A stretch of DNA of 64,000 nucleotides from Treponemataceae bacterium. GTDB taxonomy: Bacteria > Spirochaetota > Spirochaetia > Treponematales > Rectinemataceae. Location: positions 1,216,001 to 1,280,000 of the forward strand of contig CAXXHO010000005.1 of the NCBI GenBank assembly GCA_963667725.2, written 5' to 3'. Positions 54,094 to 61,962 of the stretch are shown piece by piece (position 1 is the first letter of the stretch; every line of letters starts with the position of its first letter). Position numbers and translations under genes: made by a program. Under the pieces are notes generated by a model that saw only the letters and a list, made by a program, of their open reading frames with translations, was not told where the DNA came from and did no database searches.

Positions 54094-54329
54094 GGCAGGC
54101 CTCGAGGCTGTGCTTGGAAGAATATGGCCGGCGCCTCAGCGAGGCGCCGATGTGACTGAAGGGATCGGTTTCCGGAGACGGGGGTTCCGCGGTGTCGGAT
54201 GCGTGTTCGTTCATGGGTCCAGAATACCAAATAATCGAGGCCTCGTCGAGACCGGCTTCGCTATCGACGTCGATAGCGACGACGCTCCCTACCGTAGTGA
54301 AAAATAAAAACTTGTTGTATAGTTCCCGC

Positions 54330-56432
54330 ATGCTGAACCGATTCGCCGTCCTGATCTGCGCCCTGGCCTTCTGCCTGTTGGGCGCATCCGCCCAGAACGT
54401 TGACGCGGCATTTCCCGCTGACGATACCTTCAGGGTCATAGCCGACTCGATCTCCATCGGCAGGGAAGAATTTTCCGCCCGTCTCGACGAGATCCGCGCC
54501 GAAGGACGCGAGCCTCTCGGCCTCGTCCTCGCGGGTGGATCGGCGCGGGCTTACGCTCATATCGGCGTCATCCAGGTGCTTGAAGATGCCGGCATCAGGC
54601 CTGACTTCATCGTCGCCAACTCTATGGGCGCCGTGGTCGGCATGCTTTACGCCGCCGGAGTATCCCCTGGCACGATCGCCCAAATCGTAGGAGCCGTTCC
54701 CCCCGAATTCTATTTCAACCTCGTTCTCCCCACGAAAGGCGGCATAATCAACGCCGATCCCTTTGTCGGCGCCGTAAAGGAAATGGTGGGAGATCTGGAT
54801 CTCTCCGATACTCCGATACCTATCATCGTGACGGGCGAAGACCTGAGGACCAGGCGGCTTGTGGAGCTGTCAGCGGGAGAATTTTCCAAAGCCATGACGA
54901 CAACCTTCGCCATGCCGGCGATTTTCGAACCGGTTCCCTTCGGGGAATTCCTCCTCGTCGACGGCGGATCGACCAACTTGGTGCCGGTCGAGATAGCCGC
55001 GAAGTATTCCTCTCTTCTTATCGTTTCCACCGCCTTCTACAACAAGAGCATGAACTACGGCAATCTTCTGTCCGTGCTCAGCAGGACCTTCGATATCGGG
55101 AAAACGAGATCGGGCATCGAGGCGCTGCTCGCGGTCTCGCCCATCGTCATCAGAAATGATGTCGAAAATATTTCTTACATGCAGTTTTCCAGCCCAGCGG
55201 CCATCATCGAGCGGGGAAGGGAAAGCGCCTTGGCTTCCATCGACGAAATACTCGGCGTACTGCCCGCAACGTCCAAAAATAGGCGGATGCCGCCCGAGCT
55301 GATCGAAGCCAGGGCAAGGTATGACCTCTCAATTCCGCGTACCCTCGCCCGGCTGAGGCGGGGGGCCTTGCCCGACGTTGTTCCTTCGGTGCGATACAAA
55401 CTCAGATACAAGCTTTTTGATATGTTTGAGCGTTCGGCGATGGAGCTGGACAGTCAAATGTACGGCGGGCTGGCGCTGTCGGCGGCGGCCGGCATGGTCA
55501 GAGCTTCGGTTTCCTCGATAATGGGGCTGTCGGGAGACCCCGGGCGGCAGTGGGCGCTTACGATGGGCATGCGGGCCAATCCCCTCGATACCTTTCTCAC
55601 CGAGGCCGAGTTGAGACTTTGGGGCGATTTCAGTTCACTTCCCGCGTTTTTTCTCGAGCCCGACAGCCTCGAATTCCTGGCCGATCTTTCCTGGTCCTCG
55701 AAGGGCGAGGACCTCGTCCTCCGGCCCTCTCTGAGCGCCTCCCTCGATTACGCCCTTGACTCGGGGGCTCTCGGCTGGGAAACAAGGGCCGAAGTGGCTC
55801 TCGACGCGGGACTCGGCGACAGGCCTCTCCTCCAGGGAACCTGGGCGGGGTTTGTGTCGGCAAGAGCGGGCGCCTTTGCCGACACGCTGGCCGAGCCGGC
55901 GGGCTCGCCACGCTATGGTCCCGAAATGACGCTGAAGACGGGCATTGCCTATCTTGGCGGCACCAATTTGGGCGGCGCCGCTTCTGGTAGCGCCAATTCT
56001 GGCGCCGCCAGTCCTGGCGGCGCCGCCTTGAGGGGAAGGGTGACGGGGCGGTTCGATATGTCCGGCAGGGGGCTCTCGCTCGAGCGGGGCGAAGCCTATC
56101 GGGGAAACGCCCTAGCGGGCGCGGCGCCCATCGTCATCGCCGCTAACATGGAACTCGTCTGGCTGGCGAAATCCCTCGAGTTCGACGCGGCCGAGCTATT
56201 CCTCGTCAAGAACATGGAATTGGGTCCATATTTCGACGCCGTCTGGCTTGCGGGCGGCGGCTCCGGTTCAACCCTGAAGCCTGATGCCTTCAGCCTCGGG
56301 CTCAGCTACGGCACTACCCTGAGTTTCGCCGGCTTGACGCCCATCGATCTGTCGCTTTTCCTGGGCTTGGACAATACGGGATATCCGGTTTTCGGCGTCA
56401 GGGCGGGAAGGCTTTTCCCCGCCGTCAAGTGA
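54330..56432 (+). CDS. Exported patatin-like phospholipase with a C-terminal beta-rich domain
   Basis: Signal peptide; LAGGSARAYAHIGV, ANSMGA nucleophile elbow, LVDGG. Confidence 0.82.
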   Translation: MLNRFAVLICALAFCLLGASAQNVDAAFPADDTFRVIADSISIGREEFSARLDEIRAEGREPLGLVLAGGSARAYAHIGVIQVLEDAGIRPDFIVANSMGAVVGMLYAAGVSPGTIAQIVGAVPPEFYFNLVLPTKGGIINADPFVGAVKEMVGDLDLSDTPIPIIVTGEDLRTRRLVELSAGEFSKAMTTTFAMPAIFEPVPFGEFLLVDGGSTNLVPVEIAAKYSSLLIVSTAFYNKSMNYGNLLSVLSRTFDIGKTRSGIEALLAVSPIVIRNDVENISYMQFSSPAAIIERGRESALASIDEILGVLPATSKNRRMPPELIEARARYDLSIPRTLARLRRGALPDVVPSVRYKLRYKLFDMFERSAMELDSQMYGGLALSAAAGMVRASVSSIMGLSGDPGRQWALTMGMRANPLDTFLTEAELRLWGDFSSLPAFFLEPDSLEFLADLSWSSKGEDLVLRPSLSASLDYALDSGALGWETRAEVALDAGLGDRPLLQGTWAGFVSARAGAFADTLAEPAGSPRYGPEMTLKTGIAYLGGTNLGGAASGSANSGAASPGGAALRGRVTGRFDMSGRGLSLERGEAYRGNALAGAAPIVIAANMELVWLAKSLEFDAAELFLVKNMELGPYFDAVWLAGGGSGSTLKPDAFSLGLSYGTTLSFAGLTPIDLSLFLGLDNTGYPVFGVRAGRLFPAVK
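55956..56030 (+). repeat. Degenerate 15-bp tandem repeat, 5 copies, in frame
   Basis: ggcggcaccaatttg/ggcggcgccgcttct/ggtagcgccaattct/ggcgccgccagtcct/ggcggcgccgccttg. Confidence 0.7.
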
Positions 56433-58194
56433 TATTCTCGTCTTCGCCGTAGGCCGCGTCGTTCTGCGTCAGGGGATTCTTGAAGCGCCAGAGCAGAAGG
56501 GCGATAAAGACCAGGTTGATGACGCTGGCCGCCGCGAAAAGGTTCCATTTCGGATTGCCCGAGGCCACCGACCCCACATAGCTGTGAAGCTTCACCCCAA
56601 TGGTGTAAAGCCTGTCGTCGGTGAGAAAAACGAGGGGAACGAGGAAGCCGTTCCAGGCGGAGATGAAGGCCGTCATCATCGCGGCGGCCAGGGCCGGGGC
56701 GCTCAAGGGAGCGATGATCTTCAGCATATAGGCGAGGGGCTTCATGCCCTCGAGCGCGGCTTCCTCCTCATAGCTCGGAGGCAGGCGATCCAGGAAGGCC
56801 TTCAGCGTAAAGAGTGAAAAGGGCAGGGCGTGGAAGATATACACCGTGACGAGCGGGACATAGCCGCCCAGCAAGCCCATAAGCCTGAAGAGAATGAAGA
56901 GCGGAATGAGGGAATGGACGCCGCCCGTCATTCCTAGCGCCTGCAGGAAGGCGAAGGCCTTCGCCGAGCGCCTGGCCGTCGTCCGCGACAGGGCAAGGGC
57001 CGCCGGCAAGGTGAAGATCGGTAACAAGAGGGCTGTGGTCGCCGCTACCAGGAAGGTGTTGAAAAAGTATCGCAGTATTCCCTCTTCACGCAGAATGGTG
57101 GCGTAGGGACGAAGCGAGATGAAACGCGGAAGAAGCCCGTCTATATAGACTGCCGACAGATCCGAGAACGAAAGCCACAGGACAACGTAGATTACGAGAA
57201 CGGCGGAAGCGACGGCGAAAATTCGCGCCGTCCAGCAGGCCGCTTTCCAGGCGAAGGCCGCCGCTTTGCCGCCGATGTTCGGCCGTACCATCCGCTCTTT
57301 CCCTTCCGGCCGCTTTCTGAGGCGAAACCACAGCCCAACCAGCAATATGACGAGCATTCCCACCGCGACGGCGTATGCCGAAGGTATGCCGTAGTCATTT
57401 TCGTTCCTAAAGGCGTCATAGAGAAAAATTTCGAGCGTGGTCGTCGCCCCGACAATATTTTTTTCGGTGATGCCGCCGATAAAGGGCGGTCCTCCGGCCG
57501 TCATCAGGAAGGGCACCTGGAATTCCTTGAACGACCTCACGAAATCGAGAGCCCACATGACGATGAGCGTTGTGCGGGCTTGCGGCGCCCTTATCCATCG
57601 CGCGATCGTCCAGGAATCGGCCCCGTCCATACTGGCGGCTTCTGTCATGCCGCGGTTCACGGCGCGGAGCGACGCGTAGAGGGCAAACACGACAAGGGGA
57701 ATGCTCAGCCATACGTCGACGGCAAGGGCGGCGACAAAACCGGCCGCTGGATCGGTGAGAAGATTCAGCTCTCTCCCCAGCATGACCGAAAGAATCGACT
57801 TTCCGCCGCTGCCGTGGATGATCATCCGCCAGATGGGCACCGAGATGAAGGATGGCACTCCCCAGGGCACGAGAATGGCCGCGAAAACGATCTTGAAAGA
57901 CTTTCCCGCGTCCAGGAGGACGGAAGCCAGGATGAATCCGATGAGAACGGAGAGGCTGGCCGAGAGGAGGGCCCATCCCAGCGTTATGCCCAGGGAAAGA
58001 ACGAATGCCCTGTCCTCGACGAGGGCTCTGAAATTTTCGAGACCGGCCCAGGCGGCCTGGCCGTAGCTGTCGTGGTAGAGGGAACTGACCGCGGCGGTAA
58101 AGAAGGGTAGTATGCCCGCGGCCAGAACGAGAAAGGCGAGAGGAAGGATGGCCAGTTTCGCCGCCCTGGATCCGCCGAGGATGGACGCCTTCAT
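56425..58194 (-). CDS. Fused double ABC permease (MalF-like + MalG-like, CUT1 family)
   Basis: Two EAA loops (TEAASMDGA and EEEAALEG), GLENFRAL, AWNGFL in one 589-aa ORF. Confidence 0.88.
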   Translation of the reverse strand: MKASILGGSRAAKLAILPLAFLVLAAGILPFFTAAVSSLYHDSYGQAAWAGLENFRALVEDRAFVLSLGITLGWALLSASLSVLIGFILASVLLDAGKSFKIVFAAILVPWGVPSFISVPIWRMIIHGSGGKSILSVMLGRELNLLTDPAAGFVAALAVDVWLSIPLVVFALYASLRAVNRGMTEAASMDGADSWTIARWIRAPQARTTLIVMWALDFVRSFKEFQVPFLMTAGGPPFIGGITEKNIVGATTTLEIFLYDAFRNENDYGIPSAYAVAVGMLVILLVGLWFRLRKRPEGKERMVRPNIGGKAAAFAWKAACWTARIFAVASAVLVIYVVLWLSFSDLSAVYIDGLLPRFISLRPYATILREEGILRYFFNTFLVAATTALLLPIFTLPAALALSRTTARRSAKAFAFLQALGMTGGVHSLIPLFILFRLMGLLGGYVPLVTVYIFHALPFSLFTLKAFLDRLPPSYEEEAALEGMKPLAYMLKIIAPLSAPALAAAMMTAFISAWNGFLVPLVFLTDDRLYTIGVKLHSYVGSVASGNPKWNLFAAASVINLVFIALLLWRFKNPLTQNDAAYGEDENIT

Positions 58195-58201
58195 TCCTTC
58201 C

Positions 58202-59629
58202 CTAGAAAACGAGATTGATAGACTGGATCTGCTTTACGTTCTTGATCCCTTCGGGCAACCTGGCGATGTTCTTGTCCCAGACGAGGACGAGGGGGAATTC
58301 GCTGGGATCGAGGCCAGCCCCATCCTTGTACATGGCGAGTATGACTTCGTCGTTGGCGTCCAGTTCGCGCGAATCGAGGGTGATCTTGTAGCCGTCGACG
58401 GCGGTTACCTCGACTTTGTAGCCGGCCTTGGCCGCCGCGCTGTCATAAGCATGGATGCTCGTGTCCTGCTTGTGCGGCTGGTAAGCGGGGTCGTCGGCGT
58501 AGCCCAGCAGAAGGTGGAGGGGGAAGCCGGTGTAGCTGCCGCTTATTCCCTTGCGCTCGAAAACGACTTCCTTCTTGTGGCAGCTCACGCAGGACTGCAC
58601 CGTGGCGCGATCCATCGTTCCGTTCATTTTCCCCCCGTAGGAGACGGCGAAATCCTTGAAGTCCTTCTGTTTCACGATGATGCGCTTGATCATCTTGACC
58701 GAGGTGTGGCCGTCGATGTTGGGATCGTTGGGACCGATTTTCACCGTCCTTATGTAGCCCGGATCCTTGGGGAGCCAGTCGCCGTCCATCCTGAAGGCCA
58801 GTATCCAGGTGCCGTCCGCCTCGTCGAGCACTTGCTTGCCGGAATAGGTCATCTCATAGCCGTCGGTGGCCGCGAAGGTTATGGAATCGTCAGCGGAAAG
58901 ACTCATGAAACGGGCCAGGATAGCCCTGAGGCCCACCCCGCCATAGACATTGGAGTACTTTGTCCCGGCGCTGGTCGTGAAGCTTCCCTTGTTTTCCATA
59001 TATGCCTGATCTTTTTCCAGGTCGGCGAGGGTGTAGGAGGCTTTCACTCCGTTTATATCCAGCTCGAGCGCGAAGGAGGCGGCTTCCGAAACCGCCTTGG
59101 ACGCTGCGAGGCTCGTGGTTATGGAGGCGATCTGCTTGACCCAAAGGCCCTTGGCCGTGTCGCCGACGACCATGGGTCTGTCGAGGGGCTTGCCGGCTTC
59201 GGTATCGGCGAGGATCAGCGCGTCCTGGGCGACATCCTTCGTGGAGAAGGTGGCGGAAAAACCGTCGGCCGCCGAGAGGGTGACTTCATAGCCCTTGGCC
59301 CAGAGTCCGGCGTCGAAGGCATAGGGATGGGAGGAGTCGGAACCGTCGATCATGGCGATAGCGAGGCGGAGGGGAATGCCTGAATAGGTTGTCGCCACGC
59401 CTTTTTTATCCACCGTTTTCTGGACATAATCCTTGCCCGCGGCCTTTATCTTCTGGTAATAGGACTGGGACAGGCTGTCCTTCCTCGCGCCCGCCAGTTC
59501 GATGCTCCAGCCCGTCTCCGCCGCCGAGGCGGCCGATGTCGAGTCCGCCGCTTTCCGCGATACGCATCCGGCGAGAACGAACGCGATGGCGACCGTGATG
59601 GCGAGAATGGTCCTCATTCGTCTAGGCAT
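58202..59629 (-). CDS. Lipoprotein with three molybdopterin-oxidoreductase-like (sulfite oxidase fold) repeats
   Basis: Lipobox LAGC; three repeats YxGxxLxxxx...AxDG[FY]...ILA...G..L...VKxIxxI; CVSCH motif in repeat 3. Confidence 0.75.
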   Translation of the reverse strand: MPRRMRTILAITVAIAFVLAGCVSRKAADSTSAASAAETGWSIELAGARKDSLSQSYYQKIKAAGKDYVQKTVDKKGVATTYSGIPLRLAIAMIDGSDSSHPYAFDAGLWAKGYEVTLSAADGFSATFSTKDVAQDALILADTEAGKPLDRPMVVGDTAKGLWVKQIASITTSLAASKAVSEAASFALELDINGVKASYTLADLEKDQAYMENKGSFTTSAGTKYSNVYGGVGLRAILARFMSLSADDSITFAATDGYEMTYSGKQVLDEADGTWILAFRMDGDWLPKDPGYIRTVKIGPNDPNIDGHTSVKMIKRIIVKQKDFKDFAVSYGGKMNGTMDRATVQSCVSCHKKEVVFERKGISGSYTGFPLHLLLGYADDPAYQPHKQDTSIHAYDSAAAKAGYKVEVTAVDGYKITLDSRELDANDEVILAMYKDGAGLDPSEFPLVLVWDKNIARLPEGIKNVKQIQSINLVF

Positions 59630-59656
59630 GGTGTTGCTCCTTTCGCATATTCATGA

Positions 59657-61189
59657 TTACGGCTTCGAGCCGCCGCTTATGGTTCCCAGGTTGGCGTCGA
59701 TGAGACGGCGCGCTTCCGCGAGGGCCGCGTCCGGCTTCATGCTGCCCGCGAGTATGAATCGAAGAATTTTCCACATAGTGTTTTTATAGGTGCTATAGCC
59801 TGAGCTTGGGGGTATGACGGCGCCTATCTCCGCGCTTCTTGCCAAGATGGCGTGATAGGGGCCGTCGCCTTCCGTTACCTCCCAAGCGTCTGAATTCGCC
59901 GGGAGTTTGGAGAGGGCGGTCGAAAAGCGCTGCTGAACCCCGATGCCGGACAGGTGCTCGAGGAGCCTTCGCGCGGTGACCGGGGATTGGGTGGAGCGCG
60001 TCATCGCGAAGCCTTTGAAATCGAGGAGGGGCGCCATGGGCTTGCCCGTGGACGAAACCACCGGATAGGGCGCGACGCCGAAGTCCAGGCCTATCCGTTC
60101 GAACTCGGGGATGGAATAGGACCCGCTCAGGATCATGGCGATTTTGCCCGAAGCGAAACGCGCCACCATGGCGTCGCGCTCAAGGGGCTCCAGGTAGCCT
60201 CGGTCGATCATCGAGAGAATCCAGGATATGGCCTGTCTGGTTCCACGATCGTCGGGACGGACCCCGCCGTCGGCATCGGCGATGGAAGGTTTTCCGAAGC
60301 CCATGGCTATGGGTAAAAGCCAATACGCAGAATAGACATTCCAGGAAATCGGCGTTCCGCCGCTCCGGCTTATCCGCGCGGCCATGGCTTCCAGATCGTC
60401 GGTCGTCCAGGTCAGGGCGGGCGGAACGGGGACTTGCTTTCTGTCGTAGAAAACCAGCTGCGCATCGAAATAGAAGGGAATCGCCCAACGTCGGCTTTCG
60501 GCGCTGAAGGCTGTCGCCCCATTCTCCACGATATGAGAGACGTCGATTCGATCCAGGGGCTGGAGGGTCTGCGCCGCCACGAGGTCAGGAACGTTGTCCG
60601 ATTGGATCATGAGGAGATCGGGCGTGCGCCCGCCGCCGCGCTGGACGGCCAGAAGCTTGGACCTCGTATCCGGTATGTCCACCGCTCTGACTTTCGCGCC
60701 GGAGAGCGTCGCCCAACGTTGGATTTCCGCCTTGAGTTCGGGGACGCCCTCCCAGGAGAGCCAGATTTCCAGTTCCCGCTCGCTGGCCCGGTCTCCGCTG
60801 ATGCTCACGGAACTGATGGAGGCCACCCTGGCATCCGGCGCGAGCAGGTCCCATCCTCCGGAGGACGATTCGACGATATAGAATCCGGAGAGTCTGTCCG
60901 CGAGGTTGTCTCCTATCCATATTTTTGCCCCGGCCGAGCCGGCGCACTCGATCCTCCAGGCTTCCACGAGGGGGGGAAGCAATTCGGAGATGGCGAGGCC
61001 GCGTTCCATGGAGTTCTTCGAGGGGATGGAATATGAAAGCGCGCGTAGCGCGGCGTCTGAGGGTATGGTTTTTGAGCTGCCGTTAAGGCGCAGATCGAAC
61101 GCCCAGGCAGAGGCGTGAAGCGCGAAGGCGAGGCCTAGGGAGAGAACAACCGTCCGGAAACCAGGTCCCGGCGGGTTTGAGCGAGTCAT
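59657..61189 (-). CDS. Sugar-type (CUT1/MalE-like) ABC substrate-binding protein with an extra N-terminal domain
   Basis: Signal peptide; PDLLMIQSD, LQPLD, WAIPFYFDAQLVFYD, FASGKIAMILSG, DFGVAPYP. Confidence 0.85.
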   Translation of the reverse strand: MTRSNPPGPGFRTVVLSLGLAFALHASAWAFDLRLNGSSKTIPSDAALRALSYSIPSKNSMERGLAISELLPPLVEAWRIECAGSAGAKIWIGDNLADRLSGFYIVESSSGGWDLLAPDARVASISSVSISGDRASERELEIWLSWEGVPELKAEIQRWATLSGAKVRAVDIPDTRSKLLAVQRGGGRTPDLLMIQSDNVPDLVAAQTLQPLDRIDVSHIVENGATAFSAESRRWAIPFYFDAQLVFYDRKQVPVPPALTWTTDDLEAMAARISRSGGTPISWNVYSAYWLLPIAMGFGKPSIADADGGVRPDDRGTRQAISWILSMIDRGYLEPLERDAMVARFASGKIAMILSGSYSIPEFERIGLDFGVAPYPVVSSTGKPMAPLLDFKGFAMTRSTQSPVTARRLLEHLSGIGVQQRFSTALSKLPANSDAWEVTEGDGPYHAILARSAEIGAVIPPSSGYSTYKNTMWKILRFILAGSMKPDAALAEARRLIDANLGTISGGSKP

Positions 61190-61190
61190 T

Positions 61191-61316
61191 ATTCCCCCTT
61201 TTCAAGCATGGAAGGCTGAACCGTTTCCGGCGCAACCCGATGGCTTTTAGTCCATGGACTTCCGAGGCTCATTGTCATGATGCCGCGTATCTTTAGGAGC
61301 TAAGGCTCGAAGGAAT
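61191..61316 (-). ncRNA. Putative molybdenum-cofactor (Moco/Tuco) riboswitch
   Basis: Minus strand AUUCCUUCGAGC...CCUAAAGAU...AUCAUG...GGGUUGCGCCG-GAAA-CGGUUCAGCCUUCCAUGCUUGAAAAGGGGGAAU; the 5' end pairs with the SD, and the 3' block resembles the Moco RNA CCUCCCGUAUUUGGAAAGG element; recognised by eye only. Confidence 0.75.
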
Positions 61317-61326
61317 TCTATGGCTG

Positions 61327-61355
61327 ATTCTATGGCGCCCATTCGCAGGCGTCAA
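61327..61355 (-). promoter_or_regulatory. sigma70 promoter for the riboswitch-ABC operon
   Basis: Minus strand TTGACG-N17-TAGAAT, placing the start site near 61320, just before the RNA motif. Confidence 0.75.
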
Positions 61356-61397
61356 GCGGATGAACCTGTCTTGACGGACAGACCCGAGCGCGGGGCG

Positions 61398-61428
61398 AAA
61401 AAAAAAGGCGCCCCGGATGGGCGCCTTT
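61398..61428 (-). terminator. Rho-independent terminator after the outer-membrane protein gene
   Basis: GGCGCCC-cggat-GGGCGCC stem with A9 (U-run on the minus strand). Confidence 0.85.
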
Positions 61429-61461
61429 CGTATCCGATCCGAATCCGATCGGGATCCGACG

Positions 61462-61962
61462 CTACAGTTTCAGGAGGACGCCGATATAGGAGGCCTCGAG
61501 GCCGGTTTCGGCGTTGATGGCGAAGTTCTCCGAAAGGAAATAGCTCGTGCCGCCGATCGTGTTGAAGCCGACGCTGGGAAGGATCGAAAGACCAAGACCA
61601 AAGTACGAATCGAAGTTGCCGATCCAGGCGAGTTCGCTGGGCAGGTCGAGGGCGCCCCAGTTGAAGTGGAGGGTGCCTACCGCGCCTACCGCGACGTCCA
61701 GGGTGCTGCCGATATAGAGTCCGGCGCGGCCGGCTACGCCATAGGTGAAGGGAAGTTTTTCGGCGATCGTGAACTTGCCGATGGCGTATTCAACGCCGCC
61801 GCCGACCGAAAGGCCGTACCAATAGCCAAAACCGATGCCGACATTCGCGTTTATAGAACCGGGATTAATGAGCATGCCATTTTTGGAATAGTTAGTGGTT
61901 TCCGCGGACGCGAAACCAACGACGACGCAGAGAAGCGCGACAAGCACCGTGAACTTCTTCAT
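61462..61962 (-). CDS. Small outer-membrane beta-barrel protein (about 8 strands), function unknown
   Basis: Signal peptide MKKFTVLVALL...FASA; alternating Gly/aromatic strands; SD AAGGAG. Confidence 0.7.
   Translation of the reverse strand: MKKFTVLVALLCVVVGFASAETTNYSKNGMLINPGSINANVGIGFGYWYGLSVGGGVEYAIGKFTIAEKLPFTYGVAGRAGLYIGSTLDVAVGAVGTLHFNWGALDLPSELAWIGNFDSYFGLGLSILPSVGFNTIGGTSYFLSENFAINAETGLEASYIGVLLKL

Follow-up and report, generated by a model that had tools for sequence, protein, structure and literature searches.

Cofactor salvage through riboswitch-repressed ABC importers is represented by BtuFCD for cobalamin and ThiBPQ for thiamine, systems that are enriched in auxotrophs and in which a cofactor-sensing RNA shuts uptake off when the cofactor is plentiful. 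The RNA closest to the one described here is the Moco RNA motif (RF01055). In the study of that class by Regulski et al. (2008), 58 of 176 RNAs lacked P3 and were linked to tungsten by gene context; direct ligand binding could not be shown, and a selective response to Wco over Moco was likewise deduced from gene context (PMC2408646). The SUOX enzymes carry a Mo-ligating cysteine on a beta-hairpin, which PruR (PDB 7kp2, 7rkb and 7kou) lacks; PruR, a single-domain protein of about 170 aa, has a Pro-Trp motif at the site of this cysteine and a DcpA-type regulator as its partner, and binds small pterins (PMC11194511). In a 2018 survey, Peng et al. counted 292 bacteria (without nitrogenase) in which Moco-dependent enzymes occur although biosynthesis is not complete; the explanations given are pseudogenes, incomplete assembly, new biosynthesis parts and metal-free forms, and import is not raised among them (PMC6147048). 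We found no bacterial Moco/Wco importer described in the open-access literature, where the Moco-uptake papers listed concern nematodes and mitochondria.

Here we describe a locus in a 64,000-nucleotide stretch of spirochaete DNA (the window, by which we mean the whole stretch analysed) in which a P3-lacking Moco/Wco RNA is likely to gate a three-gene ABC operon for the probable import of ready-made Mo/W-pyranopterin, in a host without detectable genes for its synthesis. The analysis shows that the RNA belongs to the family, that it has a covarying P1-P2-P4 architecture from which P3 is missing, that its coupling to the operon is conserved, and that the many cofactor-dependent enzymes are accompanied by no matches to biosynthesis or tungstate-uptake genes. 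The arrangement would share its logic with BtuFCD and ThiBPQ. It differs from them in the cofactor concerned, in its MalE/F/G-like parts, in having no ATPase in the operon and in having an extra, putative capture lipoprotein. Taken together, RNA and operon make a good candidate for an importer that salvages the cofactor and has so far gone undescribed.

Structure of the leader RNA

When the window was scanned with cmscan, the leader matched RF01055 at 54.1 bits (E 3.7e-10) against a gathering score of 36, over model positions 1-135 of 135, and this was the sole Rfam match in the whole 64 kb. The match agrees with an earlier note on this DNA, which had assigned the RNA to the Moco/Tuco riboswitch family. 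All motifs quoted there occur at 61316-61191 of the minus strand, and P1, which closes over the purine run that precedes the AUG, the GAAA-capped arm (which is P4) and the P5 region were recovered as it had described them (Table 1).

Table 1. Coordinates (window positions) of the leader RNA, its flanking signals and the operon genes
Feature	Position	Strand	Remarks
Sigma-70-like promoter	61327..61355	-	10/12 matches, 17-nt spacer
Intrinsic-terminator-like hairpin	61403..61429	-	11 pairs, 7 G-C, T tail
Moco/Wco RNA motif (RF01055), P3-lacking form	61179..61324	-	P1-to-P1 core 61316-61191
P1	61316-61309 with 61198-61191	-	8 pairs, two G-U; covers ribosome-binding site
P2	61306-61289 with 61259-61243	-	Helices 2 and 3; two-sided change in 9/13 pairs
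Tetraloop-receptor-like internal loop of P2	61297-61292 / 61256-61252	-	
Variable insertion at P2 tip	61260..61288	-	29 nt; hairpin 61284-61266, GNRA-type loop
P2/P4 junction replacing P3	61239..61242	-	4 nt in 17/17 orthologous leaders
P4	61213..61238	-	GAAA tetraloop 61227-61224; 91% paired, 4 pairs with two-sided change
P5	61202..61212	-	2 pairs, 7-nt loop; outer pair U-A, that of the family C-G
Gene 1, 510-aa secreted solute-binding protein	59657..61189	-	Pfam SBP_bac_8, E 8e-19
Gene 2, 475-aa lipoprotein	58202..59629	-	Pfam Oxidored_molyb, E 2e-12; lipobox Cys22
Gene 3, 589-aa fused MalF/MalG-like ABC permease	56425..58194	-	Two BPD_transp_1 stretches

Considered alone, the leader is not unusual: it belongs to a known family, in the form that has no P3. 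With the P3-lacking ('Tuco/Wco') subclass of RF01055 it shares a P1 that holds the ribosome-binding site, a tetraloop receptor in P2, a GAAA-capped P4, a short P5 and an AAA junction, as well as the missing P3. In contrast to the subclass as described (PMC2408646), it belongs to a spirochaete, a host outside the groups named in the abstract of that paper; its P1 is longer, and its P2 ends in a variable hairpin; its junction reads C-A-Y-N rather than C-G/A-A-N, and the outer pair of its P5 is changed; and the genes under its control are not moa, mod, tup or an enzyme gene but those of an apparent importer that includes a pterin-fold lipoprotein.

The middle arm had been described in the earlier note as atypical, with a separate palindromic arm at 61260-61249 and the 5' half of the receptor paired with a stretch near 61281-61276. 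Neither pairing was confirmed; the RNA simply lacks P3, as the described subclass does, and has a variable hairpin at the P2 tip in addition. Both parses of the middle arm were tested on one alignment of 17 orthologous leaders. The palindrome parse gave 54.9% paired cells, a value reached by 297 of 500 shuffles, whereas the Rfam-type parse without P3 gave 89.6%, a value reached by 0 of 500; these counts are not probabilities, because the leader sequences are related, and the contrast uses the same alignment. Two-sided changes were found in 16 of the 34 pairs of the Rfam-type parse, while slid partners gave 38-54%. P1, P2 and P4 thus covary around a junction that has no P3 (for P1, helix 1 of the alignment, 89% paired and three pairs with two-sided change), and no covariation was found for a palindromic arm in the same 17 leaders. 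RNAalifold, which was not given P2, predicted the same P2 through the disputed bases and no helix at the P2/P4 junction; it departed from Rfam at the junction, where it paired the 5' bases of P5 with the purine run and cut P1 to four pairs. The covariance model also read the palindrome as the 3' strand of P2; it placed an insertion of 29 nt at the tip of this helix and found no P3. Neither the length nor the sequence of this insertion is conserved among the orthologues.

The palindrome hairpin is formed by minimum-free-energy folding of the single sequence (z -2.1, with 6 of 200 shuffles equally good), in which it beats a fold constrained to the Rfam-type P2 by 2.6 kcal/mol. However, its bases form covarying P2 pairs in the orthologues, and the palindrome is broken in a genome of the same genus (G002) and lost also in G001 and G005. 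We therefore rejected a separate middle arm, and it is highly improbable that such an arm replaces P3 and sets the metal preference. On comparative sequence evidence, the palindrome is the 3' strand of P2, carrying half of the tetraloop receptor, and it is an accident of the self-complementary receptor core. In this single sequence the palindrome hairpin may be a ligand-free misfold. A GAAA loop caps P4 in 16 of the 17 leaders and the receptor-like strands are present in P2; we infer that the loop docks in this receptor.

The purine run at 61198-61194 is the 3' strand of P1 and ends 4 nt before the AUG at 61189, and no terminator was found between the RNA and the AUG. This architecture fits translational repression, which is the mode that had been proposed. 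Since P1 covers the ribosome-binding site, the leader is likely to be a translational OFF switch, as predicted from its structure. The E. coli moaA leader has the same arrangement and represses via a P1 that holds the ribosome-binding site (PMC2408646). In the ensemble computed without ligand, the ribosome-binding site of the leader stays closed (unpaired probability 0.01-0.16, with an opening cost of 6.4 kcal/mol), so that the basal level of expression may be low, or may depend on the kinetics of folding.

A transcription start is predicted near 61320, directly before P1. By count, one sigma-70-like promoter was found against 1.3 expected by chance, and the fit is positional; a TTGAC-type -35 box, read by eye, stands at an equal distance in most of the orthologous leaders. 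Further upstream, the terminator-like hairpin ends a gene for a 166-aa protein and separates it from the leader, an assignment that rests on position because 7 such sites occur in 56000-61600 against 5.8 in shuffles. The 166-aa protein (61462-61962, minus strand) is secreted, has no Pfam or NCBIfam match and has three paralogues in the genome; its gene often adjoins the leader, in either orientation. We rejected it as a part of the operon on account of this varying orientation and of the terminator that cuts it off from the leader.

P3, metal preference and the genes behind related RNAs

A search for RF01055 in 101 genomes gave 89 matches, distributed over 55 of them. The genes that follow these matches are TupA-like in 33 cases (a label given at a score of 196 against a cut-off of 400), an L-glutamate gamma-semialdehyde dehydrogenase gene in 21, the importer operon in 17, a ferredoxin-like gene in 12, AOR in 1 and others in 5. 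P3 was called from minimum-energy folds of the P1-P4 stretch, which left 8 of the 89 matches unparsed. By these calls, P3 is present in 24 of the 28 parsed RNAs before TupA-like/Moco-biosynthesis operons and in all 12 parsed RNAs before the ferredoxin-like gene, and is missing from 19 of the 20 parsed RNAs before the dehydrogenase gene. The rule that a missing P3 means tungsten has the support of the gene contexts in PMC2408646 but holds poorly in this order. Because P3-bearing RNAs usually precede tungstate-transporter-like operons, a missing P3 does not settle the metal here, and for this order we rejected it as proof of tungsten preference. The earlier note had left Mo versus W open, and rightly so, as the missing P3 cannot tell the metal. 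In the genome that carries the window, a possible tungsten link consists of six AFOR matches; there is no TupA, and five matches belong to the xanthine-dehydrogenase family.

The leaders of the importer operon share a signature. All 17 have the junction C-A-Y-N, and 16 of the 17 have the U-A outer P5 pair, which recurs in 2 of the 69 other parsed matches, 64 of which have C-G. The junction of the other P3-less RNAs is mostly C-G-A-U or C-A-A-U. These changes may mark an importer-linked RNA subtype tuned to the imported form, but since the 17 leaders share one origin, drift explains the signature as well as ligand tuning does. One P3-less RNA with a U-A P5 pair lies elsewhere, before a short ORF and near an XdhC match (L070/L019, G023:C4:47131-47277, minus strand).

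Two further RF01055 RNAs were found in the same genome as the window. The first, which is without P3 (L003:1501-1639, minus strand, equal to G000:C3:227131-227269), precedes a PruA/RocA-like gene for L-glutamate gamma-semialdehyde dehydrogenase, as do 20 further matches in relatives. This dehydrogenase needs no Mo/W cofactor, yet it follows 21 of the 89 RNAs, and our literature search on the pairing of RF01055 with the dehydrogenase found nothing related. By analogy with metE under a B12 switch, the dehydrogenase may be repressed when loaded AOR can do the job. The second RNA (L002:1501-1661, minus strand, equal to G000:C5:974706-974866; 52.6 bits) has P3 and a long P5 insertion, and stands 36 nt before a ferredoxin-like gene that is followed by a YdhV-like AOR. 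In most of the 12 ferredoxin-like loci P1 is separated from the start codon by a gap, which could mean an ON switch.

The three-gene operon and its distribution

The operon downstream of the leader combines an Oxidored_molyb-domain gene with an ABC system and holds no described Moco gene. The earlier note had left the regulated genes aside, and it is the operon, not the RNA, that is the unusual part of the locus. The product of gene 1 has a MalE-type fold over residues about 135-508; its structure aligned with that of Thermotoga maritima MalE2 with a VIA Z of 39.5 (rmsd 2.8, 360 residues aligned), at 19-24% identity to MalE structures. In front of this fold lies an additional domain, about 105 aa long (window 60782-61105, minus strand), which was modelled with high confidence and has no Pfam match. 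In a fold search with the whole protein, the matches were filled by the MalE domain. Homology between the N-terminal domain and the pterin-fold repeats of gene 2 was not found (hhalign probability under 1%).

The lipoprotein encoded by gene 2 consists of three tandem sulfite-oxidase/PruR-like folds, in a structure model built from 92 sequences with a pLDDT of 90, and the repeats are homologous to each other (hhalign probabilities 79-99%). The best VIA match of repeat 2 was PruR 7kp2 (Z 15.8, rmsd 2.6, 133 aligned), tied within 1 Z with sulfite dehydrogenase 2blf (14.9). Together with Z values of 10-15 against SorA, SoxC, sulfite oxidase and YedY, this places repeat 2 in the SUOX Moco-binding fold, to which repeats 1 and 3 are connected through hhalign to repeat 2. 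Foldseek ranked sulfite oxidases first, and profiles of the lipoprotein gave just matches of E 0.09-1.8 (sulfite oxidases and PruR) against PDB sequences. Databases call the protein 'molybdopterin-dependent oxidoreductase'. Its only cysteines are Cys22, Cys347 and Cys350, with none in repeats 1 and 2. The Mo-ligating cysteine of the beta-hairpin is absent from the lipoprotein, as Cys347 and Cys350 belong to repeat 3 and align ahead of its hairpin; Cys350-His351 is conserved in 89 of 92 sequences. In repeat 2, the hairpin has T-T-S-A-G at its end, invariant in 92 of 92 sequences; a weak profile alignment suggests that this hairpin occupies the position of the SUOX cysteine hairpin. The lipoprotein is therefore like PruR in being a secreted SUOX-type fold without the Mo-ligating cysteine. 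It is unlike PruR in having three repeats, an ABC operon, and T-T-S-A-G with no Trp at the hairpin.

For the permease encoded by gene 3, the best NCBIfam matches were MalF and MalG, below cut-off, and all sugar-transporter scores for the operon lay far under their cut-offs. The gene order is kept in every locus that is long enough, with the lipoprotein gene between those for the binding protein and the permease. No ATPase gene or other fourth gene was found in the operon, including five distant loci. An orphan gene for a UgpC/MalK-like ATPase lies elsewhere in the genome (L118:5730-6848, minus strand, equal to G000:C3:1489729-1490847) and is a candidate for a shared motor. A MalK-like gene near mobA was set aside as the motor, as its neighbours read as a polyamine-type transporter operon. 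The system thus resembles MalEFG-K and UgpBAEC in its binding-protein fold and its two permease domains, and possibly in its ATPase, if the UgpC-like protein encoded elsewhere is its partner. In contrast to these systems, it scores far below the equivalog cut-offs, has the extra N-terminal domain and has no sugar-catabolism neighbour; neither a sugar-catabolism gene nor a regulator was seen beside the operon. A gene for a patatin-like protein of 746 aa, which is extended at length beyond its C-terminal end (54192-56432, plus strand), adjoins the operon in the closer relatives only. It was rejected as an operon member because it is convergent and missing from the five distant loci that could be read beyond the permease.

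The genome that carries the window is a draft in 8 contigs with 97.0% completeness and 6.3% contamination. It has six AFOR_C, five MoCoBD_1 and two Molybdopterin matches, as well as XdhC, TatC, and MobA-like and MocA-like genes that score below cut-off. In this 97% complete draft, MoaC, Mob_synth_C, MoeA_N and MoCF_biosynth gave no match. When the Moco clusters of three relatives were compared with it by tblastn, only a radical-SAM match of 31-32%, generic ABC ATPases and flanking genes were hit. Four TupA-like queries had no tblastn match, which led us to reject a PF12849 match as TupA. A frameshifted, modA-like 5' fragment is present at the start of contig C7 (L120:4-239, minus strand), beside an XdhC-like region, and runs off the contig edge; the genome has no whole ModA, and none of four relatives tested had modA over cut-off. 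Contig C7 may be co-binned, since a gene that it carries is also found on C1 (91%) and C5 (72%).

We analyzed the distribution of the operon among the 101 genomes. The binding-protein gene is present in 19 of them and the lipoprotein gene in 18, the contig of G003 ending before the lipoprotein. In 17 of the 19, the binding-protein gene is immediately preceded by RF01055, once per genome; the other two, G025 and G035, have a contig end within or ahead of the leader. AFOR and XdhC matches are kept in all 19 operon genomes. All three biosynthesis markers are missing from 15 of the 19, but from just 3 of the 42 genomes that are AFOR-positive and lack the operon, and Fisher's p of 3e-8 overstates this contrast because the 15 genomes fall in only 6 genera and kin are not independent. 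One assembly gap removes all three markers, since they lie in one cluster, and all compared genomes are draft assemblies; in two of the three marker-less genomes without the operon, the tupA-like operon runs off the contig end. Most Mob_synth_C matches score below the family cut-off, and nearly all adjoin moaC. The markers are missing also from 9 of 60 AFOR- or XdhC-positive genomes without the operon. Biosynthesis is kept in 4 of the 19 operon genomes (G019, G040, G041 and G086), and the three of these that were checked already have a TupA-like operon or cluster. The contrast is repeated inside one genus, in which G022 has the operon and no markers and G036 the reverse.

Over the whole family (69 genomes), the lipoprotein is present in 18, of which 15 are without MoeA. 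In a phylum-wide sample it was found in 0 of 300 other genomes, so that its distribution is narrow among the genomes examined. Genus g17 (G018, G043, G052, G383-G388 and others) lacks MoeA in 11 of 13 genomes and has the operon in none; the seven of its genomes that were tested have XdhC-like matches. This genus may be another orphan lineage, one that is supplied by a different route or has lost the enzymes.

Candidate import of a ready-made cofactor

Since we could detect no pterin synthesis and no metal insertion in this genome, the import of metal-loaded pyranopterin would be the simplest supply for its enzymes. We hypothesize that when cytoplasmic cofactor is available, it would stabilize the junction and P1, with the GAAA loop of P4 docked in the P2 receptor, and that the stabilized P1 would block translation of gene 1 and, by coupling, of genes 2 and 3. 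At low cofactor, the lipoprotein would capture and shield the cofactor in its pterin-type folds and pass it to the MalE-fold protein, and then to the fused permease, with import driven by the shared UgpC/MsmX-like ATPase encoded elsewhere. The retained MobA-, MocA- and XdhC-like proteins could then mature and insert the imported cofactor, and the RNA would shut import off once the cytoplasmic pool is full. Several points weigh against cofactor import: the binding protein and the permease resemble parts of sugar transporters, and the pocket of PruR is described as too short for Moco (PMC11194511). To these are added the four operon genomes that keep biosynthesis, the genomes that lack the markers and the operon alike, the modA-like fragment, and the ribosome-binding site that is computed as closed even in the ligand-free leader.

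A cofactor-sensing OFF switch could instead control the import of free molybdate or tungstate, or of a metal-free precursor (cPMP or MPT). RF01055 matches in relatives mostly precede oxyanion transporters (33 of the 89 standing before TupA-like genes), the genome has neither TupA nor a whole ModA, and the invariant TTS(AG) of repeat 2 resembles the Thr-Ser motif of TupA. The binding of small pterins by PruR (PMC11194511) would fit a precursor. However, without MoaA, MoaC, Mog and MoeA there is no known route from the metal or the pterin to the cofactor, and the genomes that have both the operon and biosynthesis would already be served by their TupA-like operon or cluster. We consider this alternative unlikely.

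It is less likely again that the operon encodes an ordinary sugar or polyol importer for a breakdown that is independent of the cofactor, while the orphan enzymes are supplied otherwise or the missing genes are assembly gaps. MalE, MalF and MalG are indeed the nearest families, P3-lacking RNAs also precede the cofactor-independent PruA in 21 of the 89 matches, and, all genomes being drafts, incomplete assembly is an explanation that Peng et al. raised for orphan molybdoproteins (PMC6147048). However, a pterin-fold lipoprotein gene stands between the binding-protein and permease genes in every long-enough locus, and every NCBIfam sugar-transporter score is far under cut-off. Assembly gaps should strike both groups of genomes alike, yet the markers are missing from 15 of 19 against 3 of 42.

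More doubtful than either is that the operon encodes a Mo/W redox enzyme, exported and related to the sulfite oxidases, together with an importer of its substrate or product, and that the RNA ties their expression to cofactor status. The database name and the Foldseek ranking of the lipoprotein suggest such an enzyme, and P3-lacking RNAs precede putative sulfite oxidases in S. wolfei (PMC2408646). TatC is present in the genome, so that missing Tat export fails as an argument against it, and Cys350-His351 of repeat 3 is conserved (89 of 92). In contrast, repeats 1 and 2 are free of cysteine, and what appears by position to be the Mo-ligating hairpin ends in T-T-S-A-G. An OFF switch would moreover silence a user of the cofactor just when the cofactor is available; the anti-correlation with biosynthesis genes would be left unexplained; and G021 has the operon and no TatC match.

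Among these readings, the import of ready-made cofactor is the one we prefer and hold to be probable. We lean slightly towards a dedicated bacterial importer of metal-loaded pyranopterin, in which a triple pterin-fold lipoprotein would capture the labile cofactor and a repurposed sugar-type ABC system would carry it inward, so that these spirochaete lineages would be cofactor auxotrophs with a dozen Mo/W enzymes that feed on their neighbours. As to the RNA class, P3 is no predictor of tungsten among these spirochaetes, and a rule that is often repeated is weakened by this. If the reading is true, the cofactor-stabilizing protein would be useful for testing what Moco/Wco riboswitches bind. It would also explain a part of the orphan-molybdoprotein gap, and it would imply that a labile cofactor is cross-fed in anaerobic communities.
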